Notes: a model not told the origin generated them from the sequence alone. A stretch of DNA of 43,397 nt, filler included, from Jimgerdemannia flammicorona (GCA_003990765.1; 2 parts of 2 records of this genome joined end to end with filler, not necessarily neighbours in it); one strand, 5' to 3'; numbered from the whole stretch's first letter, positions 2,760 through 30,951 are shown. Made by a program: numbers and translations.

Positions 2760-3134
2760 TGTTATGTGCTCTGCAGAATTCTGCAATATTTAGATTTAAA
2801 CTAGGTGTAATATAGCAGATGCATATTAGCAGAAGTGCAGTCAATTTCTTTATCTTGAATACTTGATCTTCTTTGACTTCTCAGAATCCTCAGGTGCAGG
2901 GGTGGGGGAGTTTGCAGTTATCTGCCTGCAGACTTACTAGTTTCTTGTCTCTTTGCTTGAACTATTTGATCTAAGGTTTATTAATTATAAAAACTTGAGA
3001 TATGTATATAAGTTTGCTAGCTCTATGGTAGCTAAGTTAGGACTTCTTTTTCTTTAAGTTATTTTATACAGTTGAGAGATCTGTACATCTGTACAATCTG
3101 TACAATTATGAGTTTTATACAGTTGGATAAATTA
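2760..3134. mobile_element. Possible LTR fragment of a third, older element flanking the minus-strand element
   Basis: CpG-free sequence begins near TGTTA at 2760. It contains a TATA-like tgtatataag (about 3003) and short ctgtacaat repeats, and ends where the putative LTR terminus TGTAAC (3135) starts. Boundaries are uncertain. Confidence 0.3.
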
Positions 3135-4466
3135 TGTAACTGAGAGATTGAATAACTATAAACTATAATACTATACTATATTGAGAATTGAATTCAGGTA
3201 CTATGATAAAATGGTACTTCCTAATTCAGATCAACTGTCACAACTTCTTTCTAAATAAGTAATTTTATCTCTTTTACTACATGATCTACTTGATTATATT
3301 CTCTTAATAATAACTATTCACTTACTAGAAATCTCCTAGAACTACTTCTTGGAAATAGGCTAGGACTTGCTTGTTATTCTTGAATAATAATAGACTTAAT
3401 TAGTAATAGTAATCTGAATATAGAATATCAAATATTTCACAATGTTTCTTTTTTTACTAAGTTCTTTTTTTTATTTAATAATTATTTCAACTTAAAGTAC
3501 TCTTGATACTCAGCACAATTCTGATAGACTATAATATGTAAAATACATAATAGATGGGTCTGTACAATACTTTAAATACTGTCAAAGAAATACTCTATAA
3601 TTAGTGATTTAATAGAATACTATTATCTTTCTATAGCTTACTGAATAGCACTTATGATCCTGAGATCAAGACAGTACTTTATTGGTTAGCCATAGTACTT
3701 CTTAAGTTAGTTTTAGTAAATAGTAGTGAGGATAATTATGTCTGATAGTTTTTATAACTAAAAGGTAATTTCTTTTATTTTTTGAACAACATAAGATCTT
3801 TTCTACTTAGACTCTAGTTTTTGTAATTATGGAGTTTTTAATATATTTTAATATATCAGAACTTTATCTTTCATTTTGATAATCTCTAAGAGCTTACAGA
3901 TCTTCTCTATATTATATTATTATAATACTTATATATATCTTGATTATATAATCTTTAGTCTTATTTCTTATTTAATATAATCTCTATTTTTTGGCATTTA
4001 TATATTTTTATACTACATCACTATTAGATAATAGGATTTCTTTATAACTTTCTTCTCTGAATAGCAATTTCTGATAGTTGAGAAGTGTACTTTATAATTG
4101 TATATTTGAAAATAGATAATACTATTAGTAGATAGTGGTCTTAATTTTCAAAGTTATTACAGAACTTAGTAATAATATTCTTGAGAGTCTTGATAGTTCT
4201 TTCTATCTGTTAATTTCTCTATAGATACTGTTATATAGTGGTCACTAAGTTCTTCAAATATGTCAGATTCTCTTCAAGGTGTATCTCTTAGACTAACTCA
4301 AGTTTGTTATAAGCAAGTCCTTATTGAAGTGCCTTCCCAAGGTCTTATAGTCCTCAAACTTCTTATCTTTAAACTGTCTTGTTATCTCTTTAGATTGCTG
4401 GTAAGGAATTATATATATTACATATACTAAGAGGAACTGACTTTATTTCAAAGGAAATAAGAGGGA

Positions 4467-4474
4467 TATTTATA
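4467..4474 (-). promoter_or_regulatory. TATA box in the element A LTR
   Basis: TATAAATAtccctc on the minus strand, about 270 bp downstream of the U3 ORF. Element B has the same layout (TATAAATAccccct). Confidence 0.55.
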
Positions 4475-4744
4475 CAAAATATGATTTAATAGTTGCTAAG
4501 ATATAAAGCTAAATATAAATTTCAATAACCAAATAAAATACTGGAATACAGAAAACTATAGTTGTCAGTATAGATTTCAGTATTGATATAGATTGTTGCA
4601 TAAGTTCAGAGTACTGATAGAATTTCAGTAGTATAGGAAAAGGATGCTAGAAGAATTCAGAGTTACACAGAATCAGAATACCAGTGAAAGGATTAACTAT
4701 TATATGGGAAAAGGATTCTGGCAGAATTCAGTATCACTAAGAAT

Positions 4745-5566
4745 TTAAAACAGAAAGTTCAGAACCATGGGGGCTTCATCCTCATTACTGTCCTCAAAGA
4801 AGATGAGGTGTGTGAATATTTTATCCATTTTGCATGCTCTATAGCATGTTTCACATATATCATATGGGATAATATCATCACCAATCACATCATCACATTT
4901 GGTAGCAGAGAGAGCAAGAAGATCAGAGGCTCTCTAGTCTATAAGGTCCTCTTCCACAAAATAAGAGACAAATGTGGGGTCTTGGAGAGATCTAACCTAG
5001 ATGCTTGGGCCTTAGAATACTGTGATCAATCCTTACAGGAATTGATCTGGGTTGTTCTAGAGGATGGGATATCAGAACTCTTCTATTTCATTATTATTGA
5101 GAGTGATATTGGACTAGGCTTTTATAGCCATCATAGCTTCTAGTATATTGATACAGTGGGCCGATAGATCCCTGAAGTCTGAGACTCTAGTATACTCCAA
5201 GTTGGGGATTGATCATAGTACATGCCTGAAGATCTGATAAATCTTCTTGGTTATCCTTATTTCACATATATCTATAGAAGTGGCATCTTGTAGCTCTTGA
5301 GGGCTGGCTTGAGGGAATTCCCAGCAGAGAAGATTTCCTATTTCATATTCTTACTATATCTGGAAGCATTCAGTAGCAATGGTAATTCTTGTTTCTATCT
5401 TACAGCAGTAGAGAATATAATGATAAGAGTTGTTAGTACTCAGGTTGACACTAGGAGTCTTTGTAGTATAGATCCTTATAGCTCTTTGGATGTCTTGGAA
5501 TATCTTTTCCTAGACTGAGAGGTCTTAGTGATTCCTTGACCTTGAGGTTTGGTAAGCAGCAGGTAT
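4745..5566 (-). pseudogene. Decayed accessory ORF (about 273 codons) inside U3 of the element A LTR; apparent homologue of the 19712-20809 ORF
   Basis: One frame with no frameshift: (M, now ATA)PAAYQ...V*EKIFQDIQRAI...ECFQI**EYEIGNLL...ITKKIYQIFRHVL*SIPNLEYTRVSDFRDLSAHCINIL...FEDSNEDEAPMVLNFLF*. The stops are explicable by single transitions. Confidence 0.65.
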
Positions 5567-5820
5567 TTTATTTATAGTAAGTCTTTGAGCTATTTCAGAA
5601 TTAGTAGTTATTGAGTTGCTACTACTGTAATTCCTTGATCCTTTTTTTATATTTCTTGAGATGTCTATTTTATAGTCCCAATGACTTACAGTTGGTCATC
5701 ATGGCTCATCTTGTAGTCTGGGTGAGTCATGTTATATAATCTTCTTATTCTCTGATCTGGTGACGTGTAAGAAAAGACTATCTCCAGTACTGATATCATC
5801 ATTCTGAGGTTACTGTTACA

Positions 5821-5830
5821 TCTTCCTCCT
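5821..5830 (-). other. Polypurine tract of element A
   Basis: AGGAGGAAGA on the minus strand, directly 5' of TGTAACAG and about 350 bp after the integrase end. Confidence 0.65.
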
Positions 5831-6189
5831 GAATAAGAACTTTTGAATGTTTTTATTCATTAGTCCAGTCCTGAAAAATTTAGTGATCTCATAACCTCTG
5901 GCAGAGGGTTGAAAAGTGGTGTTTATAGACTGGCATCTTCTCTATGTATTTTGGTATAATGGTGAAGAGTCACTTCCTTCATATAGAGCAAGGGTCTGAT
6001 TCTGATCTTGACTAATTAGTTGATAGTTCAAACTCCTCTGGCTTTAAAAGTCTCAAAGATAAGAAGTTACTAGTACTGTATTCTTAAGAGAATAGTCCAG
6101 ACAGATTGTCTACTAGTTATGGGACATGCTGTTACAATTTATGGACTAGAACCTTATGGGTGGTTATTATATTTTACTTCTCTTATATA

Positions 6190-8730
6190 GGTTCATAGTA
6201 CTTCTTAAGTCTGTTCCTATATACCATAGTGGACAGTATGGTCTCTGAGAGTTTTCTAAGTCAGAAGGTAGTTCTCTTGATATCTTATACATAGAAGGGT
6301 TCTTCCCATTTGGGCTCCAGTTTTCATGACTATGAGGCTTCTACCATATTTTAATATAGTAGAACCTTTTCTCTGATTTGGATAAGTTCTAGAGTCTTGT
6401 AATTCTTCTCTACATTCTTCCTTATCAGCACTTATGACTTGATGATGTGATCTTCAGCCTTCTTTCTGATTTAGTATAGTCTCCAGATTTCAGAGTCTAC
6501 CCATCTCCAAGTTAGGTCTAGATTTGTGGCTGAGGTTCCATCAGAATCTTCTTCTCTAAAGAGCAGTTCTCTTGGGGTAAAGTGTGTACTCTTGACCATA
6601 TATCTCATAGGACAGAGAGAGCAGTTGGGAGATTGTTATCTCAATTGTCATATGTGTCTGAGATCTTCACCAGAATATTCTTGAGAGTCTTGTTGGTTCT
6701 TTCTATCTATCCATTTCCTTGAGAGTAGTATGTGGTAGTCTTAATATGCTGAATCTTGTATTTCTGATATATTATCTCATAGAATCCATGGACAAATTCT
6801 GTGCTGCAGTCTGTAGTGATTTGCTTTTGTATTTTGTAGCAGCAGATGATTTCTGATACAGAAAGTCACTAAAGAGAGAACATTGGCTTCTTGTAATGCT
6901 TCTGCTTCTATCTATTTGGTAAAGAGGTCTATAATAACTATAATATAGTGGTTTCCCGATAGTGTTACTAGTAGTGGCTCAATGATATCTATTGCAATGT
7001 AGTGGAAGAAGATAGGCTCAATTTGTAATAATCTGAGTGCCTGGTCTTGCTGATCTTATTTCTGTTTTTAGTACTTGTCATACTCTTTGACAAATTGGCA
7101 CAGGTCTTCTTTTATCTTTGGCCATCACATGGTTCTTCTTACTTGTTGTATATGTTGATTTCTCCTAGGTGTCCTTGTTTATATACTTCCTTTATTACTT
7201 GATACTTCCAGTGTTCAGATATTACAAGCTTTTATTCTTTTCTGAGTATGGTGTTATCTAGTTCAAATTGTTTCCAAGTCCAGTTAATGATGGTGATAGT
7301 CCAGGGTTTGAGGTAGTTGGGTATCTTCCACTGTCCAAGATAGCTAATTAATCTATAGTATAGCTCCTTATCTATGTTGATAGTCTTGATGGAGGTATCT
7401 TTGAGAGTACATCAGTATTGGTGTTGGTTCTCCCTGAGTGGTGCTTGACAGTTCAGTCATACTCTTATGTATAGTCTGTAGATCTATCTGGTATATATTC
7501 CTTTGGGGTTCAAAGTATAGAATAGCCAAGTAAGAGCAAAATGGTCTATTTGAATAGTGAAGTGTTTTCTGGCTAGATAGTAGTAGAACTTGTCTACTGC
7601 TCAAACTACTGCTAGGCATTTAAGCTTGCATGACTCATAGTTCTGTTCTACTCTATAGGTACCTCAGCTTATATAAGAGATGACATATTCATAACCATCT
7701 TTCTTCTGTGCTAGGACTGCTCTAAGTCCCATAGTACTTATGTCTGTTTGCAGAATGAACTCTAGATTCCAATCTGATATGGGTGCTTGGGTCAATCTAG
7801 TCTTGAGTTCATTGAAGGTTTCTTGCTATTCCTTAGTCTATTCAAATTTGGTCTCTTTCTTCAGTTGCTTGTAGATGGGTGCTATAATGTTGGAGTATCC
7901 TTTGATGAATCTTCCATAATAGGAGGCCAGTCCAAAGAAGGCATGGACTTCTATAGTTGTCCTGGGTCTTGGGTAGGATGTAACAGCCTCAATTTTCATA
8001 GAATCTATATGAATTCCAGTCTAGTTGATAATGTGTCCTAGGTAGGTAATTTCTCGGGCTACAAACTTAAACTTCTTAGGCTTGATATAGAGACCATATT
8101 CCTTGAGCTTCTTGAGAGCTAGCTGTATGTGGTTGACATGTTTCCACACAGTATTGCTGAAGATGATCATATCATTAATATAGACAAAGAGGTATTTTCC
8201 AATCTCATTGCTGAAGACTCTATTCATCATTTATTGAAAACTTGCTGGTGTATTGCATATTCCAAATGGCATTCAAAGGTAGACATAGGTGGCATCAGGT
8301 ATGAGGAAGGCTGATTTTTCACTGGCATCTTGAGTGAGACCAATCTGATGAAAGCCTGAGAACAGATCTCAGGTAGTATAGTATTTGGCTTTGCTTCCAA
8401 GAGTGTAAGGATTTCTTGAATATTTGGCAAGGATATCTATCCTTCTTGGTGATTGCATTGAGCTTCCTGTAATCAATATAGAGTCTTGGGGCAAACTCTC
8501 TAGGCTTGCTTTCTTTCTTTGGAGTGAGGACAATAGAAGAAGTCTAGAGGCTAATAGCTTGCTTGATAATTCCAGCTTCTTTCATTTCCTTGAGTTCTGC
8601 TTGCAGTCATTCTCTATAGGCAGGTGGTATAGGTCTGGCTTTCAGATAGATGGGCTTGATATCACTGGTGTCAACTTCATGATAGTACTTGGATTCTTGA
8701 TTGTGAATATGAAGTCTGTGGCAAGTACTT
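6190..8730 (-). pseudogene. pol: pol (RT, RNase H, integrase) of element A, heavily mutated
   Basis: ORF pieces 8021-8230 (LFVYINDMIIFS...HIQLAL...ITYLGHII) and 8227-8430. RNase H FILQTD-like motif about 7750. Integrase core and GPY/F-like tail ending VYRNRLKKYY. No chromodomain seen after it. Confidence 0.85.
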
Positions 8731-8866
8731 CTTCATTCTAGTTCAGGATCTTGAAAAGTTGTTCTTTTAGAGAAATGTTTTCTCTAACGATATATGTATG
8801 CTTGTTCTGATCCTTGTCTTTCTTATGCTCAAGTTCAGTAATTTTAGTAGTAGTATAGGCTCCTCT

Positions 8867-9280
8867 TCCAGTAGATCCAAAGTCTTGTTCTTCTCTCTTA
8901 GTCTTGATAAGTTCAATGGCTTCCATGATCTTAGGCTTCTTGACTTTATGGATCAATATCTGGCCAATCCTGTCATACTTCTTGACTTTGAATAGGGTGG
9001 TAGAGTTGTGATTCCTGGCTATGAGGAAGATTTTGACAGTGTAATCAGGGTCAATTACTCTCTCTTCAACTGAGATTTCACTTTTGGCCAGACTGCTCCT
9101 GGTCTTAATAATTCTGTTATAGTTTTCTGGCAACTTGACTCCAATTCCAGTACCAAGTAGAGTAGTGGTCTGTGGTTTGAGGGTAGCATCTTGAATGCTG
9201 GCAAGGTCCATTCCTATGGCTGCTTCAGTCTTATATTATGGAATCTTAACTTTGGGATAAAACTTCTTGACTTTAAGAGT
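8867..9280 (-). pseudogene. dut: Trimeric dUTPase domain of element A, between protease and RT
   Basis: ORF 8738-9211 and the upstream frame give GMDL (motif I), TRSSLA (II), VIDPDYT (III), DRIGQ (IV) and REEQDFGSTG (V). Confidence 0.9.
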
Positions 9281-9659
9281 AATGTCTGGTTCTTGTTTCT
9301 CCTCATCTTCACTGTCAGCTTGAAGCTCTGGGGGCTGGTCATCTTTTTTGACTTTCTTTTTACTTCAGCAGCTTCTTACTCATACTTTTGTTGGCAGATT
9401 TTCCTGACTTCACTGATACAGGACCAGCAGTCATTTAGGTGTTCAGAGCAATACATCCTAGTACTATGAGAGTATCTTTCTTAAGGGGTATAGCCTTCAA
9501 TGATCTTGTTGTACTACTGCTCATCTGTGAGATTGGGTGTCTTGTTCTTGTTCTTGTTCTTATTCACTGAGTGTATGAAGACTTCTGTATCCTCTTCATT
9601 TCTTTTCTCCATATCTGGTAGAACTTCTTTGTGGACATTGATAGAGACTTGTTCTATAG

Positions 9660-10882
9660 TTGATCTGCATCTTCTGGACATTGAGATCAATGATGGCCTT
9701 CACCTTGTGAAGTCATTGGTTACCAATGAGGATGTCATAGTTGGTGGCACTTGTAACAATCATATCTACTGAGATGGTAGCTCCTTCAATCTTGATGGGG
9801 ACTTCTTGGATTTTGTCTAGGAAGGTAGCTTATATGCTATCTGCTATAACATAGATCATCTTGGTGAACTCTTCGATGTCCCAGCCTAAGTGGTCACTTG
9901 CCTTCTTACTCATGAGACATCCTCTAGCACTAGTATCAATAATGGTATCAAAGATACAATATTCAATCTGACATGTGGTATAGGTTGATATCTTGCACTG
10001 GTCTTCAGTTTCTTCACCTGAGTTTTTGGATTCTTCTTATGCATTGTGAGCTTCTACAATCTAGTACTCTTGATTCTTGACAGTGATTGCAAGTTCTACT
10101 CTCAATTGCTGTCTGAAGGCAGAGACTTTGGCTAGCTGTCCAAAAGTAGTATTGATCTTCTGTTCCTTGAGATCCTTATAGATATCATATTGGTGGATCT
10201 TGGTCTTATGCAACTTCTGTTCTTTCTTGTTTTCACTTTATCCTGACTAGAGTAGTGAATTTGATAATTTGGTGGGCAGCTTTATCCAGCTCCATGTCTT
10301 GATCAATCTCCTCAGATTGGGTCTTGCTTTGAATAATAATAGCTGGGGTCTTCTTTGGTCTTCCAACTGGCTTGTGGTTGCTCTTCTTATTATATGGCTT
10401 GGACTGGGTTCTGTCATCTTCAGTAACAGGGTAGAATTCAAACTTCTCATAGTATTCTTCATCATCAGTGTCACTAATCTCCTTGATGACTACTATATTG
10501 GTTTGTTATCTAGTTCTAGTAGCATTACTGGGTTGGGCTTTATGTCTTGTTTTAGTCATACAACTCTTTGTATAGTGGCCTTCTTCTCTATATCTGAAGC
10601 ATGTGATATTGTATTCTTCTATAAAAGCTACAAATCTCTGTACTGGTCTCCTGTTGGCACTTCAGACTTCTCTAACAACATCACCAAGATGTGTAATCAT
10701 CTCAGCAAACTGCTTGGTGAGTTCCTCCACTGGGTCAGCTTTGGCTGTCTTGGGGGTAGTTGGGGATAGTTTTCTGTTTACAACTGTAGTTGGTATGATA
10801 CTGGTTGACTTTGATGGCTCTATCTTAATACCAGTTATTTTCTCTATTGAGTGTTTGGTTAGATGTCTGGCAGTTCAATATC
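9660..10882 (-). pseudogene. gag: gag C-terminus (zinc knuckle) and aspartic protease of element A, interrupted at 10882 by element B
   Basis: DPVEELTKQFAEM..., decayed CCHC knuckle at 10601-10560, and retropepsin motifs IIDTSARG and YDILIGNQ*L. Confidence 0.8.
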
Positions 10883-12913
10883 TGTAAGCACACAACCTCC
10901 AAGCCACTGAAATTACATGTCACCCTCAGAACAAATCTGGAAATCACCTACTTGATCACAAAGCTGAGTCAAACTGAAGTCACAGCGCACAAAGCTGAGT
11001 CAATACGAAGTCACAGAACACAAGATTTACACAAACGGAGTCTTACCAATCAGGACCAAATGCATATATACTGAGCACTGAGATGCATCGAAACAGAGAA
11101 CCAAAACAAACAACAACCACAAACTTCCAAACATACAAACATGACCACCGAGATCTACAACCATATCTGTGCTGACATTTGGAATGCCATTGTCAACCGA
11201 GCCACACCCCCTCTGCCCCTCATGAATATCCATAGCCTAGCACCCCTCTACTTCGTGGAAGCCTGATGGAATGCCAGGAATATGCTTAATGAGGCCCACC
11301 GGATCGGACAAATATCAAGCTACTACCAGATTGGCTGCCTCTTGGAAGATATGGTCGAACACCACCACGATACAGACATTACCCAGATGTCTCAACACCA
11401 GAAGCTCATCGTCGGCAAACATCGAGAACTCTTCTATGAGTACAACACCTTTATTCCCTATCTCCGAGTTACTACCAGCAAAATGTTGCTACCCTATCCT
11501 ATGGCCAAATTGATGACATGATACAAGAACTCAACCACAAGTACCTCGAATATGTCCAGACCACAGACAGAACCTTTCCACACCCCAATGATCATATCCT
11601 GCAAATGCCCCAAGTTGGATATGCCATGAAGGACATCTACAATATAATCCACTTCGATGAAGATGAAGCAGAAGACAATGATCCCTCTGACGCCGACATG
11701 ACCTCTAGCCAAGGATCTCTGCCAACCCTGATCACCCCGCCAACCTTCTCAATGAACTTACAATAGTTCATAACTACATACAGGACTTATTGGGACAATG
11801 ACCACTGGCACGAATACCAACCTGCATTCACCCCTGATTACTTCAATTACAATGAAGAGACCAGAGAACACAACCTGTACCTCCAGACAACCCTCGAGAT
11901 CGAACCAACAACCCCACCACCTGAGTATGAGTGACATGAACCACAGCCGCCAGCTTACTACAACCCCGCGACTCACAGTGCTGTAACCTATAGAAGGTAC
12001 GCAGACAGTGAATCCGATGAAAGCGAAGACAATACACCCATCCTTCACCCACCAACACCTTATCCAGCATATGAAACAGATGATGCTATCCTGTCGGATG
12101 GAGATAAAGTTCCAATGTACTATTACCTCAGCGAACAAGGAGAAGTAATCCGCAAACCATTATTCCTAGATGACTACTTCATCAGAGATGATGCAATTGA
12201 TGGTGATGTCATCGAAGACTACCCAGACAGTGCCTAAACCCATAAATAGTCTAGCAGTCATAGTATAGTTAGCTTAGCCTTGTACGACATGACTGTGAAC
12301 TGACTCAGCAGTCAGACAATCTCTTGACATGTCAGATCACACTTGTACTATGTGACTACATTCCAACTCAGTAAAGCACTTAGTGCTACATCCATATTCA
12401 GCATAGTCTAGATAGCCCCTCACTAGTATAAATACCCCCTCCCCCAGACCTCAGAATCCCAGACTCGAATACATAAGAACATTCCTGAATACTTCCCCAC
12501 AATATCCCTTTACACAACTACTCCTAGTATAGCAATATCATGAATAGCAAATAAACCTATTTCATAACCCACAAACCACTCTTAAGTAAATCCGCTCCCT
12601 GTTAGGTCCTACTCCTAACTCCATCACGAAATTTCCTAATTGGGTATTGTCTGCAGCGATACACCAATTGAACTAAGCTGGTCTTAGTTTCTTGAACTTC
12701 CTGAAATACGGAAAATCCTGAACATCCAGAACTAGTCCGAAAAAGGACTTTGGTTGAGATGTCAACCCGATCTTGAAATCAATAAGCGTAGAGGATGTAC
12801 TCCATACGAAATTGATCTTGACCATAAGAAAACGGTCTTCCAGAACATCCAGAATATCTAGAAAACCCTTCCAGAACTACATAACAGTTACCCTAAAAAG
12901 TAACCCTCTTACA
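10883..12913 (+). repeat. 5' LTR of element B (2031 bp)
   Basis: Direct repeat of 19423-21487 with TGTAAG/CTTACA termini, TATAAATA at 12427-12434 and AATAAA at 12550-12555. I counted about 20 mismatches to the 3' LTR in a 220-bp sample, mostly transitions. Confidence 0.95.
11141..12237 (+). pseudogene. Disrupted 5'-LTR copy of the U3 accessory ORF
   Basis: Colinear with 19712-20809. TGA at about 11264, a 1-bp deletion at about 11486, TAG at about 11764 and TGA at about 11932. Confidence 0.9.
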
Positions 12914-12916
12914 ACT

Positions 12917-12928
12917 TAGTAGCAGTGG
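12917..12928 (+). other. Primer-binding site, probably initiator tRNA-Met, with one G>A change
   Basis: TAGTAGCAGTGG lies 3 nt after the 5' LTR and resembles TGGTAGCAG, the complement of the eukaryotic tRNAi-Met 3' end. Confidence 0.65.
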
Positions 12929-14940
12929 TTTACAATCCAATTCCGCTTCAAGACGCTTCCTCACCCTACTACAAACCCCTCTAAGAATTCCTACAAGTTG
13001 GTATAAAGCCCAACCTCTGAACTGGAATTTATCCTGAACTATCTGACAATCTGGAGAGAATTGAACCTGATGTACAAGGACAATTTGACCTCCATACCTG
13101 CAACAAGTGGGATAAACTTCATTCAAAAAAAGAAGTACTCTGGTTAAACCAGCAAATAGGTGAAACCCTATTCACCGAACTCCTTGTACTACACCTAGCA
13201 AGTCAAGACGAAGAAGGTCTTATTGAAGCCTTCTTTACTCTTCTCAACAAGAGTTTTGTCAGCTTCACAAATCCGAGCAACCTAGGACAACCAGCAGCAG
13301 TCTTTCTAGCCTTAGTTCCTCATGAAGCCCAAGCCTCTGTAGCCAAGTGGCTCAACTCTACCGACTTTTACCACACCAGGACCAAGACCGCCTTATACTA
13401 CCGATTCCAGAACAGCAAGGCCCGCTATATCCTTAAGGAAGAAGCAAGAGAAACTCTTCATCAACTACCTGACCCTGAACCTGAAGCAGGCCCTGCTACA
13501 GCCCTATCTGAATCTGAAACCAATACCGAACCTGAACTTGACTTTGAATTAAGTCTATCTGAAATCAGATATACAACTGATTCTGTCTACTTTGATGCCA
13601 AGCAAACCCAATTACATGGGGACCAAACCAAAGAAGAGGAGGAGTATCTCACCGAATTCGATCCCGGATACACCACTGAAGGAGACATACGTCCATCAGG
13701 ACAGAATACACCTACACAGCAACAAACAGCTATCTATCAAGCCCTCACTCCAGACCCACAACTACTATTCCAGCAACTTATACAGACCCAAAGAACCCCA
13801 TCACACTCTGCACCAGTACCTCAAGTAGTACTAGTAACACCACTACCAGCAGTCCAACTGCCTCCAGCTATCAACATGGCGAACCAACAGATTCTTGATC
13901 TCACAGCCCAAGTAGCTATAATGGCAGCAACTATCACTGCCTTAGCTGAACAGACCTGACCTACCAAAAATCTGAGCCTACCTACCTTCAATGGTACTAC
14001 ACAAGAAGTCCAAAGCTTCATTAGTATAGTTGACACCAACTTTGAAGCCAATCAATGGACTAATGAGTGAGTTGCTGACCACATCCTGATAAACAATCAA
14101 GACCACACTCTGGAACAACTCTTTGCTACTACTACAGCCTATGTCCGCCGAGTTGTTACATTCTTCTGAGGACCTGCCGAAGAATGGTAGCGAACCCTTC
14201 CTGAAAAACCCCTCACATGGGATACCTGACCTGCAGTAGTTGCCCAGAATGCAGCAAACAATGCCCCAGGATATGGAGCCCATCCTGCAGCCCCTGGACT
14301 CAAACAACTCATGATTGCTCAATATCGCAGCGAGACCATGATTGCCGAATCTCAAGTAAAACTCTGCAACCTCAAATTCGATATATATAGCAAAGAAGAA
14401 TTTGAAACCTTCTGTACAAAACTTGAGTCACTTCTGAACACTGTTGGCCTAGGATACATTGCCAATGACGAAGCACGAAATAGTACAAGAGCAGACCATT
14501 TATTTGATGCCCTGCCTGAATGGCTTACTAGAAAAATCCGTGAGCAAGGCTGCCCAGTTGGTTGTGATCACCAACAATGGTGCCTGGCAAGAATCAAGAC
14601 CATGGTCAAGCGAATTCTAATGGCTGGACCAATTCTGTCCCAAAGACAATTTAACAATAAGGAAAAGACTTGGACCAAGAAAGAAGAATCCAAGCATGAA
14701 GCATCCCGAGCTCCCTCCACATCCACCTCTTGGACACCCAGAAATCATGAACCCACCCAGCCAAGTACCTTCAAGAAACTAACTGAAGGTGAAAGGAATG
14801 AACTTCGAAGAAGTGGAGCATGCTTCTATTGCCGAAAGACAGGACACATGGCCAGTGCCTGCTCTAACCGAAAACCCCAAACAACAACCTGAGCAACTGT
14901 CACCACTCTGCACCATCTCAACCACCTGACCACCAGAACA

Positions 14941-15348
14941 CTATACTTTGTCAAGTTAAGACAAACTGCTAAGGCCCCAACCAAAGAAAGTCAAAAAGCA
15001 ACTGGATATGATCTGTATGCAGCCGAAGAAGCTACAGTTTCTAACTGAGAAGTCAAACAAGTCTATACAGGAATCAGTATCCAAATCCCTGAAGGACATG
15101 TTGGAAGAATATGCGGTTGCAGCAGCCTAGCACTGAAAGGACTCTCAGTAGAAGGAGGAGTCATTGATGAAGATTATACAGGCGAAATCATTGTCCTCAT
15201 TCAAAACCACAGTTGGACACCCTTCAAGATCCCTATTGGCTTCTGCATTGCCCAGATCCTATTCGAAAAAATCGAGTCAACCCTGACAGTCAAAGAAGTC
15301 CCTGAACTACTGCCCACCATCCAAGGATCTAAAGGATTTGGCTCATCA
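14941..15348 (+). pseudogene. dut: Trimeric dUTPase domain of element B, between NC zinc knuckle and protease
   Basis: Not in the ORF track. Manual translation: LYFVKL...TGYDLYAAE...GRICGCSSLA...GGVIDEDYTGEI...FCIAQI...IQGSKGFGSS. All five motifs are present, with conserved Arg codons altered by CpG transitions. Confidence 0.92.
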
Positions 15349-18300
15349 AACAAAGCCCCAGCCCAACCTACCATAAGCAAAGAAGAACAATTCTACAAGA
15401 AGATCAAAGATGGATATGTACCAAGTGGCTGATGCCCTCATGGTATTGGAATGTACTCTTCCCGAATAATTGATGATTGCTTCTCTTGTGTCAATGAACT
15501 GGCTCAAAGAAGAACCAACAGAAGAAAGGCTCCTACAACTGAAATCACCAGCATTGGATCAGACAAACTGCTCACCCTTAAGGCTTTTGTCAATGGAGCA
15601 CCTGTCAAGATTATAATAGACAGTGGCACCTCAGGCAACTTCATCAATGAAGAAACAGCCAACAGACTAAAGGTCTTTACCTCTCCAGTGCAGCAAACTC
15701 AAGCAGTTGCTACAGCTGATGGAACCTCACATATTATTAGCAAAGAAGTCTGCAATCTACCCTTTCGAATTGGCGACTACCGAGTACATATTACACTCCA
15801 AATCATACCACTTCCTGACAATGAAATCATCCTTGGGACTCCATGGTTAAAACAAGAGAACCCTATGATTGATTGGGTAAACCATTCCCTGACTATTAAG
15901 AAAGGACGCTACAACTTCAAACTACAAGGCGAAAAGGACTCACTCAACTCTAGTGACCCTGGACCAAAGGTCACCCACATCAATAAGCTACAACTCAAGA
16001 AATTGGCCAAGAAATGCCCTCTCTTCACCATCTCCATCTGACTATCCAAAGGAGAACCCGAGAACTCTGAAGAAGATTTTTCCAAAGTTGACAGCTGTGT
16101 CAGACCACTACTCCAGAAATTTCGAGACATATTCCCAAAGAAGCTCCCGAAAGGCCTACCTCCCAAATGAGCAGTAGACCATGTAATCAAGACTATCCCA
16201 GATGCCAAACCAGCCTTCAAGTCAATCTACCACATGTCTCCGAGAGAAATTGATACACTCAAGAAGGAAATCGATGAACTCCTAGAACAAGGATTCATCA
16301 GACCCAGTGTATCACCCTATGGTGCACCAGTCCTCTTCATTGTCAAGAAAGGAGGAGACCTGCAAATGTGCATTGACTACTGCGATCTCAATGAACAGAC
16401 TATCAAGAACTGTTGCCCACTACTGAGGATTGATGAAATATTCAATAGGCTCACCAATCCACAATTCATGAGCTCTTTTGACCTGCGAAATGGCTATTGG
16501 CAAATTGCCATAAAAGAAGAAGACATCTACAAGACAGCCTTCCGAACTCGCTATGGACACTTCGAGTTTCTGGTTATACCCTTTGGCTTAACTAATGCTC
16601 CAGCAACCTTCCAGACACTAATGAATACCATTCTACATCCATACCTGGACAAATTTGTTGTTGTCTACATTGATGACATCCTAGTCTTCAGCAAAACTCT
16701 GGAAGAACATCTTGAACACCTTGAACTAGTACTACTAAAACTCCAAGAAAACCGACTCTTTGCAAAACTCAGCAAGTGCGAATTTCTTCTGAAAGAAATC
16801 CAATTCCTTGGACACATTGTCACTCTAAATGGAATCAAAGTGGACCCCAGCAAAATCTCTGCGATTAAGGATTGGCCCAGACCCAAGAAGCTAAAAGACC
16901 TCCAGTCATTCCTGGGATTAGCAATCTATTACAGGTGATTTGTTGCCAACTTTGCCAAAATTACTACTGCGCTCATCCAAATGATCAAGCACAGCAAGAA
17001 ACAAGAACAACCCTGGACCATGAAACAAGAGAAAGACTTCAACAATCTTGTAACTTGGGGACCCAAACAAGATACTGCCTTTCAAGCACTGAAAGATGCC
17101 CTGATAACCACACTAGTACTTCAAGCAGCAAACCCTGCCCTACCATATGAAGTTACTACTGATGCCTCTGATCTAGCTCTTGGAGCAGTGCTCATGCAAG
17201 AAGGACACCCTGTCACCTATCACTCCCGCAAGTTCAACAATGCCGAAATTAACTACGCAACTCATGAGAAGGAAATGCTAGCCATCGTAGACACTCTGAT
17301 CAAATGGCGACCATATCTAGAAGGAGCACACTTCACTATATTGACTGACTACAAGTTATTAGTCAACATCAAGACACAGGCTACCCTTTCCCAAAAGCAA
17401 GCCAGATGGATGAAAGTCCTCACCAACTTTGACTATGAAATTCAGTACCGCCCTGGCAAGGAAAATATTGTTGCCGATGCAATCTCCAGACCACCAATCA
17501 AAGAGGTTATCCAAACTCTGACCTTGGTTACCAATACTATCATGGAACAAATCATCGCAGCATGTGTCGATGATAAAGAAGCTCAAATACTCCGAGAAAT
17601 CCTGAACAAGGATGATGCTGACAAGTATACCCGGTACAATCAATATCAACTCAAGGACAATGCTATCTACTATAAGGACAGATTGTATGTTCCAAACAAC
17701 CGAGACCTCTGAAGGACTATCCTATTCGAATGTCATGATGCCCCTACAGCTGGACACTTAGGATTTGATAAATGCTACAAAGTTATCTCCCAAAACTTCT
17801 ATTGGCCCCGCATGGCAGATCAGCTCAAGACCTACATCACTTCCTGTGATGTCTGCCAATGAAACAAGTTCTCAACACTAGCAAAACCCAGCTTACTTCA
17901 CCCTATTCCAGTACTATCCGCAAATTGAGAACAAATCTCTATGGACTTCATTGTACAACTACCCCAAACCAAGAATGGGAAAGATGCAATTGTTGTCTTT
18001 GTGGACTATCTCAGCAAACAAGCCCACTTTGTGCCTACTACCACTACTGCAACAGCACCAGACATAGCCACACTCTTATTTGATAACATCTTCCGCTATC
18101 ATGGTCTTCCCAAGATCATTGTTAGTGACCGAGATCTGAAATTCACCAGCCACTTTTGGAAAGCCCTCCATGCGCACCTTGGAACAAAACTTGCACTATC
18201 CACAGCCTTTCACCCTGAAACCGATGGCCAAACTGAAAGAATGAACCAAACACTAGAACAAATGCTAAGGAACTATATCTCCTACAGACAAGATGATTGG

Positions 18301-18830
18301 CATGAACACCTCACCGCAGTCGAGTTTGCCTACAACAATAGCAAACAAGCCTCTCTTGGAATGACCCCATTCTTTGCCAATACTGGACAAAACCCAAACA
18401 CCCCTCTGACACTTATCCGAACTACCGATAAACCCTCCACAGTTGAAGCTATTGAAGAATTCCTACTCCGGATGCGCAATCTAAGTCAGATCGCAATTGA
18501 GAATTTATCACGAGCTCAAGAACAACAGTCACAGTATGTTAACCAACACCGCTGAGAAGAAATCTTTGACATTGGAGAAAAAGCCCTACTAGACATCAGA
18601 GGATACTGAGTTGACAACCTCAAGCACAGACCATCCACAAAACTGAACAGCAAGTTCATTGGACCATTTGAAGTCATCGCACAAGTCTCTCCAACCTCCT
18701 ACAAATTGGTGCTACCAGACACCATTAAGATTCACCTCAACGTCTCAAGCAATACAATGAGAATGATGACGAGCTATTTCCAAATCGGACCACCAAATCA
18801 CCTGCATCTGTCATTATTAATGACCAAGAA

Positions 18831-18977
18831 GAGTATGAAGTTGAACAAATCCTCAACAAACGTAGTAACAAGAATCATCCTGAGTATCTTGTCAAATGGA
18901 AAGGTTACCTGATCCACGATGCAACCTGGGAACCCAAGACCAATCTCCAGAATGCTACTGACTTAGTTCAGAAATAT
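18831..18977 (+). other. Integrase C-terminal chromodomain
   Basis: [49 protein letters not shown], with aromatic cage residues Y/W/Y present. Confidence 0.9.
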
Positions 18978-19408
18978 GATTCTTTAAACAACTAGAACCA
19001 AATACTCTGCACCTATCCATACATACTATATATTACCCTCCTAAACATTATAACTATCATGAACCAAGTCAAGAACTCAGCAAAAAACAAGACAAGAATA
19101 CTGAATCCCTGGAAAAATAGCAAAACTGAAAGCAAGCCTATTCTCCCTGTACCACTGGTGGGAAACAAGGCATAGACATTTAAGAAGATTTCTTAGAGGA
19201 AATTCTCCAGCAGTAAACGACATCAGAATCACTTCCGGCGCATGGCATTGAACACATGACCCTTTAACATGTGAATCCAATGCATTAGGCAACTGTACTA
19301 TGAGCATGCCACTTTCTGAAAAAATGGACCTTACCAGACTTTTGATCTCCCAAACAGTATAACAACACTAGAACAAATTAGAAGGCCCCGACGAGGACAT
19401 CGAAAGCT

Positions 19409-19421
19409 AAGAAGGGGAGAG
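19409..19421 (+). other. Polypurine tract of element B
   Basis: AAGAAGGGGAGAG, ending 1 nt before the 3' LTR start TGTAAG. Confidence 0.9.
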
Positions 19422-19422
19422 T

Positions 19423-21487
19423 TGTAAGCGCACAACCTCCAAGCTACCGAAATTACACGTCACCCTCTGAACAAAGCCACTGAAATCACACACGACCTCC
19501 GAACAAATCTGGAAATCACCTGCTTGATCACGAAGCTGAGTCAAACCGAAGTCACAGTGCACAAAGCTGAGTCAATACGAAGTTACAGAACACAAGATCT
19601 ACACAAACGGAACCTTACCAATCAGGACCAAATACATATATACCAAGCACCAAGATGTGTCGAATCAGAGAACCAAAACAAACAACAACCACAACTTCCA
19701 AACATACAAACATGATCACTGAGATCTACAACCGTATCCGCGCTGACATTTGGAATGCCATTGTCAACCAAGCCACACCCCCTCTGCCCCTCATGAATAT
19801 CCATAGCCTGGCACCCCTCTACTTCGTGGAAGCCCGATGGAATGCCCTGAACATGCTTAGCGAGGCCCACCGAATCAGACAAATCTCAAGCTACTACCAG
19901 ATCGGCCACCTCCTGGAAGATATGGTCGAACACCACCATGATACAGACATCACTCAGATGTCTCAACACCAGAAGCTCATCACCCACAAACATCGAGAAC
20001 TCTTCTATGAGTACAACACCTTTATTCCCCGCCTCCGAGTTACTACTAGCAAAATGGTCGCTACCCTGTCCTATGGCCAAATCGATGACATGATACAAGA
20101 AATCAACCACAAGTACCTCGAATACATCCAGACCACAGACAGAACCTTCCCGCACCCTGATGACCATATCCTGCAAATGCCTCAAGTCGGATACGCCATG
20201 AAGGATGTCTACGATATAATCCACTTCGATGAAGACGAAGCAAAAGACAATGATCCCTCTGACGCTGACATGACCTCTAGCCAAGGATCTCTGCCAACCC
20301 TGATCACTCCACCAACCTTGCCAATGAACCTACAACAGTTCATAACCATATACGAAACTTATTGGGACAATGACCACTGGCACGAATACCAACCCACGTT
20401 CACCCCCGATTACTTCAATTACAATGAAGAGACCGGAGAACACAACCTATACCTCCAGACAACCCTTGAGATTGAACCAACAATGCCACCACCTGAGTAC
20501 GAGCAACATGAACCACAGCTGCTGGCTTACTACAACCCTGCGACTCATAGTGCTGTAACCTATAGAAGGTATGCAGACAGCAAATCCGATGAAAGCGAAG
20601 ACAATACACCCATCCTTCGCCCACCAATACCTTATCCAGCATACAAAACAGACAATGCTATCCTGTGGGATGGAGATGAAGTTCCAATGTATTATTATCT
20701 CAGCAAACAAGGAGAAGTAATCCGTGAACCATTATTCCTAGATGACTACTTCATCAGAGATGATGCAATTAATGGTGATGTCATCAAAGACTACCCAGAT
20801 AGTGCCTAAACCTATAAATAGTCTAGCAGTCATAGTATAGATAGATTAGCCTTGTACGATGTGACTGTGAACTGACTCAGCAGTCAGACGATCTCTTGAT
20901 ATGTCAGATCACACTTGTACTACATGACTGCATTCCAACTCAGCAAGGCACTTAGTGCTACATCCATATTCAGCATAGTCCAGATAGCCCCTCACTAGTA
21001 TAAATACCCCCTCCCCCAGACCTCAGAATCTCAGACTTGAACAATCCAAACACAACTCCTGAGCACTTCCCCACAATATCCCTTCACACAACTACTCCTA
21101 GTATAGTAATATCATGAATAGCGAATAAACCTATTTAATAACCCACAAACCACTCTTAAGTAAATCTGCTCCCTGTTAGGTCCTACTCCTAACCCTGTCA
21201 CGAAATTTCCTAATTGGGTATTGTCTGCAGCAATACACCAATTCAACTAAGCTGGTCTTAGTTTCTTGAACTTCCTGAAATACGGAAAATCCTGAACATC
21301 CAGAACTAGTCTGGAAAAGGACTTTGGTTGAGACGTCAACCCGATCTTGAAATCAATAAGCATAGAGGACGTACTCCATACGAAATTGATCTTGACCATA
21401 AGAAAACAGTCTCCCAGAACATCCAGAATATCCAGAAAACCCTTCCAGAACTATGTAACAGTTACCCTAAAAAGTAACCCTCTTACA
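19423..21487 (+). repeat. 3' LTR of element B (2065 bp)
   Basis: Direct repeat of 10883-12913 with an extra repeat unit of about 32 bp near 19470-19500. Two AAGCTGAGTCAA motifs (about 19534 and 19564), TATAAATA at 20999-21006 and AATAAA at 21124-21129. Confidence 0.95.
19712..20809 (+). CDS. Intact LTR (U3)-encoded protein of unknown function, 365 aa from the ATG shared with the 5' copy (384 aa from 19655)
   Basis: Uninterrupted intronless ORF wholly inside the 3' LTR and upstream of the LTR TATA box. Helical-looking N-terminal half and acidic, Pro/Tyr-rich C-terminal half. Confidence 0.75.
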   Translation: MITEIYNRIRADIWNAIVNQATPPLPLMNIHSLAPLYFVEARWNALNMLSEAHRIRQISSYYQIGHLLEDMVEHHHDTDITQMSQHQKLITHKHRELFYEYNTFIPRLRVTTSKMVATLSYGQIDDMIQEINHKYLEYIQTTDRTFPHPDDHILQMPQVGYAMKDVYDIIHFDEDEAKDNDPSDADMTSSQGSLPTLITPPTLPMNLQQFITIYETYWDNDHWHEYQPTFTPDYFNYNEETGEHNLYLQTTLEIEPTMPPPEYEQHEPQLLAYYNPATHSAVTYRRYADSKSDESEDNTPILRPPIPYPAYKTDNAILWDGDEVPMYYYLSKQGEVIREPLFLDDYFIRDDAINGDVIKDYPDSA

Positions 21488-21649
21488 ACTATAGATCCTG
21501 CTGTGCCTGGTATAGTTGAGCTGCTGGACAATAGCTAGCCTAAGTTAATGGGGGGGCAGTGCTTGATGGGTGGTGGTGGGGGAGGGTTTTGGCCTATATA
21601 GTCTAGGTTCCCTTCTAATAAAAATCTGTGGGACATTGAGTCTGTTAAA
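21488..21649 (-). mobile_element. Probable continuation of element A gag up to the gap
   Basis: CpG-free like element A. One minus frame reads EGNLDYIGQNPPPPPPIKHCPPINLG*LL. Confidence 0.5.
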
Positions 21650-21850: not shown

Positions 21851-24267
21851 CTACGCACTGCTTTCCCCTTCCTCCACCGACCTCCTAGCCGCAGCCACAG
21901 CCAACGGATTGACCTTGCTCAGGGCAGTCATCATGCGCCTCAATCCGAGCTGCAGCATCTCCCAATCCATCGCGAACGTGAGACGGAACCACCCTTCTTC
22001 CTCGGCATGGAAGGACTCGCCCGACGCAATATAGACGCCATGATCAAGAAAAGAGCGGGCGAGCGCCCGTTCAGCGTGCCGAGCACCGTCGGGAATGGGG
22101 CCATTGCTGGTGGGTGGCTTTGGAAGGAACGAGCGGAGGTCGATGAAGATGAAATGGCCCGCTTGGGCGGGGAGATAGTTTATCGAATGCGAGCGGAGGA
22201 AGTGCGTGAGACGTTCGTACGATTCGGCGAGACGGCGTTGATTGGTAGTAAGGAACCTGAGGAACGTGCCGGGTAAGCGTAAAGATAAGATAATCCACGT
22301 TAGATCGTAGATTGAATAAGTTAATATGCCAGGGGTGCCAGCTAGCCAAACATAACTAGGGGTATCCGGTGCTCCTTGCAATAGACCGAGCCTCCATCCC
22401 AACTTATTTCCCCTCCACGCCATCATCATACGAGCAAATAAAATGGAAGGAGAAGAGAAAGAGAACGAGGAAAGCAGAAACAAAGAAAAATGTAAAAAAA
22501 AAAAAAAACGATGTTCTCTTCGATTCTTCCCACTTCCGAAAATCTCACGCCCATCATCAATGCCACCACGCTCCCCATTAATAAGAACAAAATAGTAGAT
22601 TAATCGAAATTAAAAAAAAAAAAACCACCTAGAAGAGCAAATATGACAGTATCATCCAGCTCCGGCGATTCTCCACCAGCCCTCACAATCTCATCCGCCC
22701 TCCCCACAAACATATAATATTCGCACGCAAACAATGAAAATGACCAACGTGACCGGAAAAGTATCAAGCCATGGCTCGTAAGACAAAAAAAACAACAAAA
22801 AAAAAAAAAAAACTCAACCTCGTTTGATAACGCATATGTAATCATATAAAATGGCTTGTTCTACTTACCAATCCACCCACGTATCGTCGGACAGCATATT
22901 GATGACCAGCGCCTCCGTGGCAGACGACACCCACGTAAAATCACTAAGTACAACGGTAATAAGGAGTTGAGTTAATTGCCATGCCACAATATCAACATTT
23001 GAGGAACCGCCCACAAACACCGCGAACGTATCCCAAATCCGCGGCCAGAATCAATGTCACGAACTGTTCTCGGATGACACCTCGCTTCCTAGGACATTGG
23101 CTCTTACACCCTAGAAATCTGGGGTTGTCACCTAGTTCCTCTTTTAGTCCACTTTATCAAACATACATCCGACCCATTTCTCTGTGCACAGAGAGTCATG
23201 ATACCGGTGTATAAGTGTAGATGCACACCAGCCCTTCTCGGCACCTTTAGCACTCGTACTCCACGTCCAACCAGCTCTTTCCGACCCACCGAGGCACCCA
23301 AAAATAAGACAACAATATATGAATCAAAATATCATTGCAAAATTTGATTACATACGCGATCGCCTTCATCGCATTCACAACATCTGGATTCCACGGCGAA
23401 ATATGGAACCCGACACGGAACCCGTTCAAGCAGAAATCCTTGGAAATGCCGTAGACAACCTGGACCAGTGCCGGATCGATGAGGGAGGCGAGGTTATCGA
23501 GCGAAAGAACAGACATGAAGGGGTCCGACTTAGAATCTCCGATGATGTGGTCGAAGTCGGATAAAGCGTACACTTCGTCGAAGATGGCGTGAAGGTTGTG
23601 CTTGGAGGCAAAGCGGAGGAGGCGCTCTATCACCGCGCGAGAGTAGCATCTGTAAAGGAAACAGGAATATTAGTTGAACAACATGGTAGAAACATCATTT
23701 AAAACGACGAACTCCTTCCACATGGACACACCCGAATCACCGCGTGGATAACTCGATATCCCTTTCCTGACTTCACCCTGAAATCTTTCCTTTACCTCAT
23801 CCCCGTACCTCACTTGACCAACACGCCAAAAAATCGACAATACCTGGCCAAAGGGTTGTGCGGGTTGCAAATGATCATAGCACGAACATTGATCCCATCT
23901 GCCACGGCTTTCTGATAAGCGCTCTCGAGACTTTCGACATGATCAACATCGAAAGGGGAACGCCCCTCGAGGTTAACGGTGATAGTGCGCGCGCCCGACC
24001 TGACGGTCACGTCCGAATCGAAGGTCCCGTAGTAAGGTGCGGTGATGAGTACGGCATCACCGGGGTCGCAGATCGCGTACGAGAGGCCGTTGATGGCCGC
24101 GCTGACGCCGTTAGTGACGGTGATGTGATCGGGATGTACGGGTGTCTTAGGGTCGAAGTACTTGTTCAACAGCTTCGCAACATGCGTGCGAAGCTCAACG
24201 GAGCCGTGCGGCAAGCCGTATTGTAGGTGCTATAGGGACCATGAGGGCGAGAAGAGAGGGAACGAGA

Positions 24268-29487: not shown

Positions 29488-29525
29488 GTTGCAAGCAGAA
29501 GTTGAGGCCTTGATTCACTAGGTCT

Positions 29526-29557
29526 TCTGAGTCACTGACTTTTAAATCTGAGTCACT
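29526..29557. promoter_or_regulatory. Tandem TGAGTCA (Gcn4/CpcA/AP-1-type) sites upstream of TyrRS
   Basis: TCTGAGTCACTG occurs twice, 21 bp apart, with cores at 29528-29534 and 29549-29555, 40-70 bp upstream of the ATG. Confidence 0.5.
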
Positions 29558-30255
29558 GGCTTGCGCAGCAATTTTAAAACGCGCCTTGTCCAATCAGAGG
29601 CGTTCACAAGCCACCACATTTTGTGGCTTGGCCATCGAGAGAGACGTCATCATCAAACCAATGTCATGTCTCTGACAAAGCTAATTGAGTATTGTGAAAA
29701 AAATAAAAAATAAAGGATGAGTAAATTCAACAATAATTTTATCATTTTATTTACTATAATATAATAAAGTATATATTATTTAAGTTTATATTATTTTATT
29801 CAATAGATATTTGAATAATATAAATATAATATTAATTTTTATATAATATAGTTATTAAATAAAAAAGTTGTAAAATTATATTTTTTATTTTACTTATAAT
29901 ATTCTAAAAGATCTATTATAAATATATTTATTATAATATTATTAGTTAACAACTAATATATCTAAACAAAATAAAAATAAGAGTAAATTGCAGTCAACTG
30001 TTCTCATCCATCATTCTTAAATGTGAGAAATTGCACTATTACAAGTGAGAGGATCAATAAACTTGCTCATGCACTCATCTGCAAAAATTGATGAAGGACA
30101 GTTTCGAATATCCATTAGCACCAAAATATTGGCAGATGTGGACCCATTGCTTGAATTCGTTATAAATGAATACGGTTCAGACGATTTCGACCTCGGTTCC
30201 GAAATTGATTCTGGCCCAGTTATGAGCCCGACTCGGCAAGCCACTAATTATTGAA

Positions 30256-30341
30256 AACATCGATCGAACAAACATCGATCAAATATTGACCAAATAAACA
30301 TCGATCAAACATTGATCAAACATCGATCAACATTGATCAAA
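30256..30341. repeat. Minisatellite of about 11-bp units AAACAT(C/T)GATC
   Basis: About seven imperfect tandem copies. Confidence 0.8.
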
Positions 30342-30951
30342 CCCGACACATGCACACAAGAGATGTTTGATTGCGGACTTGATCGTTTTTACGTGCGGAC
30401 TATTGCACACATCATCACTGCTGCGTCATCACTGCATGACCATGTTGCGGTCTACTAGTACGTCATCATGCAGCGCGATGTGCAATGATTATCGAGTATG
30501 ATGTAGCAATATATTTAACGTTCGATTTCCTACATTTATTTATTTTTATCGCAAACCCTCTACTTTCTCCGATTCCTTCATGTCGATACATGCGAACAAT
30601 CGGCAATGAGAGATTCAATGCAAGCAAGGAAGCCCCTGAAAGGCGGTTTTTCCAACGACGGCGCAAGATAGAACGAAAATAAATATAATGCGGAATCAAT
30701 ACACTCGCTGTCTATATTCTCTCGTGGATGCCGCTTGCAATGAATAGCCACGCAAGATAGACAGGCGGTTCACATAAACCAGCAGGCCAATGGAAGCAAC
30801 GAGCGAATATGAATGGGTGTAAACTTGCACATTAATGGCGAGCTACGATCAATGAGAAATAATGCGCGCATCGGACGAAAGATCAATGATGCAGGCAATA
30901 GAGGGACGGCGATGCAGCAGTGGTGGTGATGATTAGTAATGACGGCGGCAA

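Follow-up and report, generated by a model that had tools for sequence, protein, structure and literature searches.

A candidate family of accessory genes linked to the long terminal repeats of two divergent Ty3/Gypsy elements in Jimgerdemannia flammicorona

Do two divergent Ty3/Gypsy retrotransposons of Jimgerdemannia flammicorona (GCA_003990765.1) carry the same accessory gene, and is this gene part of their long terminal repeats (LTRs)? The question is raised by two elements in the window, the whole stretch of DNA that was analysed (43,397 nucleotides, filler included, composed of two parts joined end to end with filler). Element A is a truncated element on the minus strand, and element B is a chromodomain element on the plus strand. 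Each possesses an additional open reading frame (ORF), decayed in element A (ORF A) and intact in element B (ORF B). A preliminary description had placed both frames in the U3 region of the 3′ LTR and had proposed that they encode one conserved or exchanged LTR-linked accessory protein family. With moderate confidence, we conclude that both elements carry one old family of retrotransposon accessory genes, located past the polypurine tract.

ORF B lies inside the LTR, after the polypurine tract and upstream of the LTR TATA box. A blastn comparison of the window with itself revealed a direct repeat (10901-12916 and 19474-21490) with 91.6% identity over 2021 bp, and an extra 45-bp match (10883-10927 and 19423-19467) extends the LTR pair, the limits of which were set at 10883-12913/16 for the 5′ LTR and 19423-21487/90 for the 3′ LTR. 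Both LTRs have the termini TGTAAG...CTTACA, as read directly. The 3′ LTR possesses an additional tandem duplication of its first bases, of about 51 bp (19423-19473), that is absent from the 5′ LTR. Single contigs of a soil metagenome run skip 33 or 32 bases over this segment. The ATG of ORF B (19712) is found 289 bp into the 3′ LTR, and its stop (20809) 190 bp before the TATAAATA motif at 20999. ORF B thus belongs to U3: the LTR match fixes the start of the repeat ahead of it, the TATA box follows it, and the 5′ LTR contains a second copy. The 5′ LTR copy is broken, with 88.8% amino acid identity to the intact one, three in-frame stops and one frameshift, a 1-base deletion near 11485.

The coding frame of ORF B has been under purifying selection. 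The two LTR copies differ by 99 substitutions, including 91 transitions and 37 changes at CpG, which are distributed over codon positions 1, 2 and 3 as 30, 18 and 51 (omega of about 0.5). Fifty-one of the 99 differences are synonymous, compared with 32.4±4.3 expected when the same spectrum is placed randomly and 35.2±4.2 under a CpG-aware null; at least 51 were reached in none of 5000 simulations with either null. Scored in the two other frames, the same differences gave 27 and 23 synonymous changes. Because integration yields two identical U3 copies, the synonymous excess implies that a large share of the LTR differences accumulated between active lineages. No target-site duplication of element B was found, the 5-bp flanks being unmatched (ATATC at 10878-10882, ACTAT or ATAGA at 21488-21495). 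LTR differences shaped by purifying selection on ORF B, together with these unmatched flanks, suggest that element B is a recombinant of two related copies, and its LTR divergence (8.4%) is therefore unusable for dating the insertion.

Just two relatives of ORF B were detected among 5.8 billion and 1.84 billion sequences. The first, P0002, has 66-67% identity over the C-terminal 250 amino acids and keeps the frame and the C-terminal end, and the second, P0003, has 91% identity over the first 128 amino acids.

Similar to ORF B, ORF A was once a real gene. Its frame now contains 12 internal stops in 273 codons and an ATA in place of the start ATG, with no frameshift. Intact relatives of 271, 247 and 215 amino acids with 59-63% identity are present in public metagenomes, and the alignment of ORF A with one of them, P0005, is a single tblastn segment spanning 1-271. 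A profile search added five further relatives, giving eight database proteins with open frames. P0012, the most divergent A relative among those listed, comprises 342 amino acids and has 37% identity at 99% coverage; additional members of the A-family cluster, of 323 amino acids, also have open frames. An MP... start is common to P0005, P0012, P0014 and P0016. The alignments of both families were used to scan metagenome and viral contigs; pattern matches were obtained, none of which was confirmed as a relative. By comparison with the intact relatives, all 12 stops of ORF A fall at glutamine (8) or tryptophan (4) codons. These positions, the ATA start and the lack of insertions or deletions indicate that ORF A was destroyed by C-to-T/G-to-A transitions alone, a decay that appears to be of the repeat-induced point mutation or deamination kind. 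The GC content across 3001-5000 is 0.24-0.31, compared with 0.43-0.46 in element B.

The former coding capacity of ORF A is thus read from intact relatives with open frames and not from stop density. The latter was considered as proof and rejected as uninformative, the ORF A frame having 13 stops against 17 expected, and the two remaining frames of its strand 15 and 24. A plus-strand frame over 4745-5566 contains 9 stops, fewer than the sense frame of ORF A. Antisense to ORF A there is a 148-codon open frame (4697-5143, plus strand) with no Pfam match, probably a product of chance. Selection on the A family is evidenced by open protein frames down to 37% identity, the LTR-pair substitution comparison applying to ORF B. 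Sensitive blastn, tblastn and hidden Markov model (HMM) searches detected no second ORF A copy in the window.

The N-terminal 130 or so amino acids of ORF A and ORF B are very probably homologous. The preliminary description had aligned them colinearly by eye over about 130 residues, and the same alignment was recovered by Smith-Waterman, MAFFT, hhalign and HMMER, rising above chance when divergent relatives of ORF A were included. A search with ORF B by BLASTP matched the divergent P0012 with E 0.004 over 107 colinear residues, and P0003 matched P0012 with E 0.001. The hhalign comparison of the B family with eight A sequences gave P 5e-4 over 125 columns, with B 6-130 placed on A 22-149, and with nine A sequences P 4.2e-4 over 209 columns. 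None of 409 shuffles matched the hhalign score of 32.9, neither among 221 column shuffles (maximum 25.1) nor among 188 shuffles in blocks of 20 (maximum 23.9), and the reversed controls scored 17.1 and 17.2. An HMM of the nine A sequences matched ORF B in HMMER with 15.3 bits over the residues found by hhalign. This value was reached in 0 of 2000 global shuffles (maximum 11.5) and 0 of 2000 block shuffles (maximum 12.3), the reversed sequence giving -1.1. A MAFFT alignment of both families showed the register of the other alignments, with identity of about 20%. The C-terminal parts of the two families could not be aligned, and blastn revealed no DNA similarity between the two ORF regions.

Several results speak against homology and have to be set beside these. 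Using only close relatives of ORF A, the similarity remained at a chance-to-marginal level (P 0.03-0.9). The Smith-Waterman score of ORF B against the decayed ORF A was 46, a value that 16 and 9 of 500 shuffles also attained, as did 15 of 540 other translated windows, and a tblastn search of the window with ORF B found no match in the element A region. The hhalign comparison with the four close A sequences gave P 0.026 and a probability of 1.9%. The intact P0005 matched ORF B in BLASTP with only E 0.9. Of 400 shuffles, 152, 25 and 274 equalled or exceeded the Smith-Waterman scores against P0005, P0006 and P0007, respectively. Also with the divergent members included, the best hhalign probability was only 32-35%, the B profile is nearly one sequence (effective number of sequences 1.17), and several comparisons preceded the significant ones. 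Cross HMM searches of the six-frame window found the region of the other ORF only at E of about 4-10.

The position of ORF A within U3 is deduced from sequence landmarks. In element A the putative LTR border consists of AGGAGGAAGA (5830-5821) followed by TGTAACAG (TGTAAC, from 5820), and this purine run followed by TGTAAC resembles the border of element B, where a purine run is followed by TGTAAG. ORF A begins 254 bp after the AGGAGGAAGA/TGTAAC junction and ends 271 bp before a TATAAATA motif at 4474-4467 on the minus strand, offsets which, like those of ORF B, agree with the preliminary description. The promoter context GTATAAATATCCC in element A resembles GTATAAATACCCC in element B. The claim that both frames lie in U3 thus stands for element B, with its LTR pair and duplicated ORF, and for element A is an interpretation of landmarks in one putative LTR.

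Blastn, in the self-comparison and with sensitive settings, detected no second LTR of element A in the window, and ORF A may accordingly lie outside the LTR. It could then be an ordinary third ORF ahead of the true LTR, with only element B carrying its gene in the LTR and AGGAGGAAGA/TGTAAC not being a border. This explanation is unlikely. Only about 70-170 bp separate the TATAAATA of element A from the next fragment, compared with about 490 bp of R-U5 in element B, and so short a stretch fits a truncated or misjudged LTR. Nevertheless, the purine run followed by TGTAA(C/G) mirrors the proven border of element B, the motif GTATAAATA(C/T)CCC is common to element A and the LTR promoter of element B, and the distances are alike in both elements, 254 and 289 bp into the LTR and 271 and 190 bp before the TATA box.

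The fragment that adjoins the putative LTR end of element A (3691-4217, minus strand) is a more decayed integrase C-terminal piece of an A-like element, with 65% identity between 4217-3691 and 6717-6194 of element A. No ORF-A-like sequence was found downstream of this second integrase fragment by sensitive blastn, tblastn or HMM search.

Under the favoured reading, one old gene family in both elements, the gene would follow pol and the polypurine tract and would consequently be copied into both LTRs as U3, which is observed in element B and presumed in element A. It was kept by purifying selection while the elements were active; copy A was later destroyed by transitions, and the 3′ LTR copy of ORF B is still open despite the broken pol. 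The genomic RNA includes U3 at its 3′ end, which would make the gene the 3′-most ORF of the element transcript. A small promoter within the initial 290 bp of U3 would probably drive additional transcription up to the LTR poly(A) signal, so that the gene could be expressed from any LTR, including solo LTRs. Motifs weakly suggest such a promoter ahead of ORF B: a 31-bp tandem repeat containing TGAGTCA lies 115-180 bp upstream of the ATG, and a TATA-like CATATATACC at about 19634. Element A has TGAGTCA at 155 bp and TATAAAA at about 100 bp upstream of the ORF A start. Against this interpretation, TGAGTCA is frequent in the window, with 18 sites compared with 7 expected.

The proteins of both families are acidic overall (isoelectric point 4.5-4.9). 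The N-terminal part is near neutral, and the C-terminal part is family-specific, strongly acidic (net charge -23 to -33 in both families) and rich in proline and aromatic residues. Family A proteins also possess a short arginine-rich stretch. As stated in the preliminary description, no named domain could be recognised: Pfam gave no match at E<=10 for five proteins, PDB profile searches gave nothing significant, and the ESM Atlas no usable match. Likeness to a known retroviral accessory protein was likewise absent from the Pfam and PDB profile searches. A membrane segment, as looked for in env-like ORF3s, was not detected in four proteins of both families (Kyte-Doolittle 19-residue maximum 0.64-0.97). 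Two AlphaFold models were obtained, one of the B family and one of the N-terminal domain with both families aligned. Their mean confidence (predicted local distance difference test, pLDDT, 31.6 and 45.5) made them unusable for fold comparison, and the all-helical secondary structure of the N-terminal domain is a mere hint at such confidence.

We tentatively predict, with considerable doubt, that the protein is a trans-acting regulator of element expression or of host silencing, with targeting assigned to the N-terminal domain and the effector or activation role to the acidic tail, in parallel with the retroviral accessory proteins encoded in the 3′/U3 region. The main alternative is a role in particle assembly or reverse transcription, as a Gag-associated protein or chaperone produced from a spliced subgenomic RNA. 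A 3′-most ORF suits subgenomic expression, as for the other ORF3s described in the available text of PMC5408684, and the U3 promoter is a prediction from motifs. However, the protein is strongly acidic, unlike nucleic-acid chaperones, and has no zinc knuckle or basic domain beyond the short arginine-rich stretch of family A. We consider the assembly role distinctly unlikely.

It is improbable that the two ORFs are unrelated, lineage-specific captures of the ORF3 type in like positions, with a similarity that reflects helical structure and similar composition. The early comparisons were non-significant, as such captures would predict, the hhalign probability never exceeded 35% at an identity of only about 20%, and many unrelated kinds of extra ORFs are described for LTR retrotransposons in the available text of PMC5408684. 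Nonetheless, shuffles that preserve local composition never matched the scores (0/188 in hhalign, 0/2000 in HMMER) and reversed controls stayed at background. The signal grew with the diversity of the A family (hhalign P 0.026, then 5e-4, then 4.2e-4), as expected for true homology, and register, orientation and position in the element agree. It is highly improbable that the ORFs have no function and are carried along as open frames arisen by chance, or as a piece of a host gene that was captured and drifts within a long LTR. In favour of this reading, no known domain matched, relatives are very few (two matches in 1.84 billion representatives for ORF B), and element B is itself defective; by our estimate its 365-codon frame could stay open by luck. 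Against it, the synonymous excess is confined to the frame of ORF B, the A-family frames are open with start and end conserved down to 37% identity, and the domain is conserved across elements with reverse transcriptases (RTs) only 36% identical.

The proposal of one LTR-linked accessory protein family is therefore borne out as one old family maintained by selection, on the grounds of profile homology, intact relatives and synonymous excess. A wider reading is possible and is held only tentatively. It combines a U3-embedded, selection-kept family that would predate the split of the two lineages (RTs 36% identical, one lineage with and one without a detectable chromodomain), LTRs that would each act as a promoter-bearing cassette, and a product that would act in trans as an anti-silencing or expression factor.

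Features of the two elements in the window (PR, protease; RT, reverse transcriptase; positions counted from the first letter of the window)
Feature	Position	Strand	Basis or remark
Element B, chromodomain Ty3/Gypsy	10883-21490	+	LTRs of about 2 kb each
Element B 5′ LTR	10883-12916	+	blastn self-match and sequence reading; similarity runs to 12916
Broken ORF B copy in 5′ LTR	11141-12237	+	tblastn, two frames; codon-wise comparison
Element B gag region, two stop-to-stop pieces	13021-14892	+	ORF list; weak CCHC knuckle
Element B dUTPase, upstream of PR	15049-15432	+	Pfam PF00692, E 1.9e-24
Element B PR, RT, RNase H, integrase, SH3-like, chromodomain	15433-18980	+	Pfam; several frames
Element B polypurine tract, AAGAAGGGGAGAG	19409-19421	+	sequence read; directly before 3′ LTR start
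Element B 3′ LTR	19423-21490	+	blastn self-match and sequence reading
31-bp tandem repeat, 2.2 copies, TGAGTCA in each unit	19529-19595	+	Tandem Repeats Finder score 92; motif matches
ORF B, 365 amino acids, intact, entirely in U3	19712-20809	+	ORF list, tblastn, relatives, synonymous excess
LTR core promoter TATAAATA and AATAAA	20999-21006 and 21123-21128	+	sequence read; U3/R and R/U5 assignment presumed
Element A internal part	5821-10882	-	5′-truncated at element B LTR; Pfam on read-through frames
Element A PR	~9979-9662	-	Pfam, read-through frames
Element A dUTPase	~9250-8867	-	Pfam PF00692, E 2.1e-20
Element A RT	~8443-7916	-	Pfam
Element A RNase H	~7837-7508	-	Pfam
Element A integrase	~7000-6200	-	recognised by reading only
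Putative 3′ LTR of element A	4400-5820	-	deduced; motif at 5808-5820; 3′ end indistinct
ORF A, decayed	4745-5566	-	read-through translation; tblastn with P0005; alignment

Element B harbours, in the order given by Pfam, CCHC, dUTPase, protease (PR), RT, RNase H, integrase core, Tf2-type SH3 and chromodomain, which includes the PR-RT-RNase H-integrase order of Ty3/Gypsy elements. The zf-CCHC match in gag (E 5.8e-4) is just under the Pfam cut-off. The pol domains were recognised as RVP_2 (E 1.2e-11), RVT_1 (E 3.8e-32), RT_RNaseH (E 1.5e-32), rve (E 2.3e-8) and SH3_Tf2-1 (E 3.1e-11), and the chromodomain as PF00385 (E 3.9e-17, at about 18834-18980). Element B is defective, its pol being split over several frames.

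Similar to element B, element A possesses PR, RT and RNase H in Ty3/Gypsy order by Pfam, and an integrase recognised by reading. No chromodomain was matched at E<=1 in three frames of 5820-6400, where decay could hide one, and only element B qualifies as a chromovirus. By tblastn, the two elements share 36.4% identity over 176 amino acids of RT and 38.8% over 116 amino acids of dUTPase. As the preliminary description had noted, they otherwise differ: a chromodomain is found in element B only, the dUTPase lies before PR in element B and between PR and RT in element A, and the ORF regions have no similarity at the DNA level.

Beyond element B lies a host gene for a class I/II aminotransferase (21851-24229, minus strand) in three open pieces, consistent with introns, and the 5′ part of element A is missing there. 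Other host genes encode the start of a class I (Trp/Tyr-type) tRNA synthetase (about 29284-29394, minus strand) and a pirin (about 33919-35151, minus strand), whose N and C cupin domains in different frames point to introns or frameshifts. Pfam searches on read-through frames found host genes only, and no further element, in 29000-41000. A neighbouring ORF gave a weak ESM Atlas match to clusters composed mainly of Basidiomycota, the sole taxonomic hint obtained from the sequence.

B-like elements with such an LTR are widespread and repeated. The contigs of two soil metagenomes and of one coded organism, three DNA-type runs that stem from different studies, covered each of the 30 bins of 13000-21490 with at least 80% likeness, and transitions form the great bulk of the contig differences from element B. 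Contig depth figures are unreliable for ranking regions. In a further small run, X16, guessed to be RNA although its kind is unproven, contigs cover parts of the LTR, from which no expression was deduced. Its summed contig depth, subject to the same unreliability, reached 1500-4000 over R-U5 (20952-21490), whereas the ORF had 0-16 and most of pol about 0. Some other abundant repeat or transcript may contain the R-U5 sequence too. Two X16 contigs leave the LTR of element B at 19616 and 20346 into near-identical sequence starting with TGTAA(T/C)A. This start is of the same kind as the LTR starts described here and suggests that, in the X16 organism, another LTR element has inserted in nested fashion into B-type LTRs.

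LTRs are usually taken as non-coding and masked in annotation, and a protein family embedded in them would be routinely missed. If it is expressed from the LTR, solo LTRs, which often far outnumber full elements, would stay gene-bearing, and the copy number of the family would be uncoupled from that of the elements. An accessory protein shared by divergent fungal Gypsy lineages would offer a handle on the response of retrotransposons to repeat defences, for which element-encoded candidates are currently few.

Both elements possess a dUTPase (PF00692) inside the gag-pol region, as in basidiomycete Gypsy elements. According to the available text of PMC2864245, the dUTPases of such elements in Postia placenta and Phanerochaete chrysosporium lie at the N-terminus of Pol or between PR and RT, and independent acquisition was suggested. 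PosPlaTy3-3, -4 and -5 of P. placenta and the P. chrysosporium elements show dUTPase positions exactly as in elements B and A. This part is thus already known and adds nothing new, and the functional module with dUTPase raised in the preliminary description has the co-occurrence in two elements as its sole basis. For a fungal element, a figure legend of the same source (PMC2864245) names an 'additional ORF with unknown function'; the available text does not state its position relative to the LTR, and it is possibly identical with the present family.

LTR retrotransposons often carry extra ORFs after pol, as the accessible part of PMC5408684 describes. Similar to the present family, the ORF3s of the bdelloid rotifer elements Vesta, Juno and TelKA and the env-like ORFs of the plant Athila/Tat elements are family-specific genes downstream of pol, some lineages combine them with a dUTPase, and ORF types are shared between divergent elements (PMC5408684). 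However, in the accessible part of that source these ORF3s are not described as lying inside the LTR, and several have enzymatic or membrane domains, unlike the present proteins, which have no membrane segment and no known domain. The element crapaud has LTRs with variable 5′ halves, with no LTR ORF described in the accessible part of PMC10787394.

Searches of open-access text found no fungal LTR retrotransposon described with a conserved ORF inside U3. Accessory genes located in or overlapping the U3 of the 3′ LTR are known from retroviruses, namely sag of mouse mammary tumour virus, nef of primate lentiviruses and bel/bet of foamy viruses. Unlike these genes, the present family is found in a fungal retrotransposon without env and resembles no Pfam family. 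ORF B nevertheless resembles sag, nef and bel in that it follows the polypurine tract, is duplicated with the LTR and is located 3′ on the genomic RNA.

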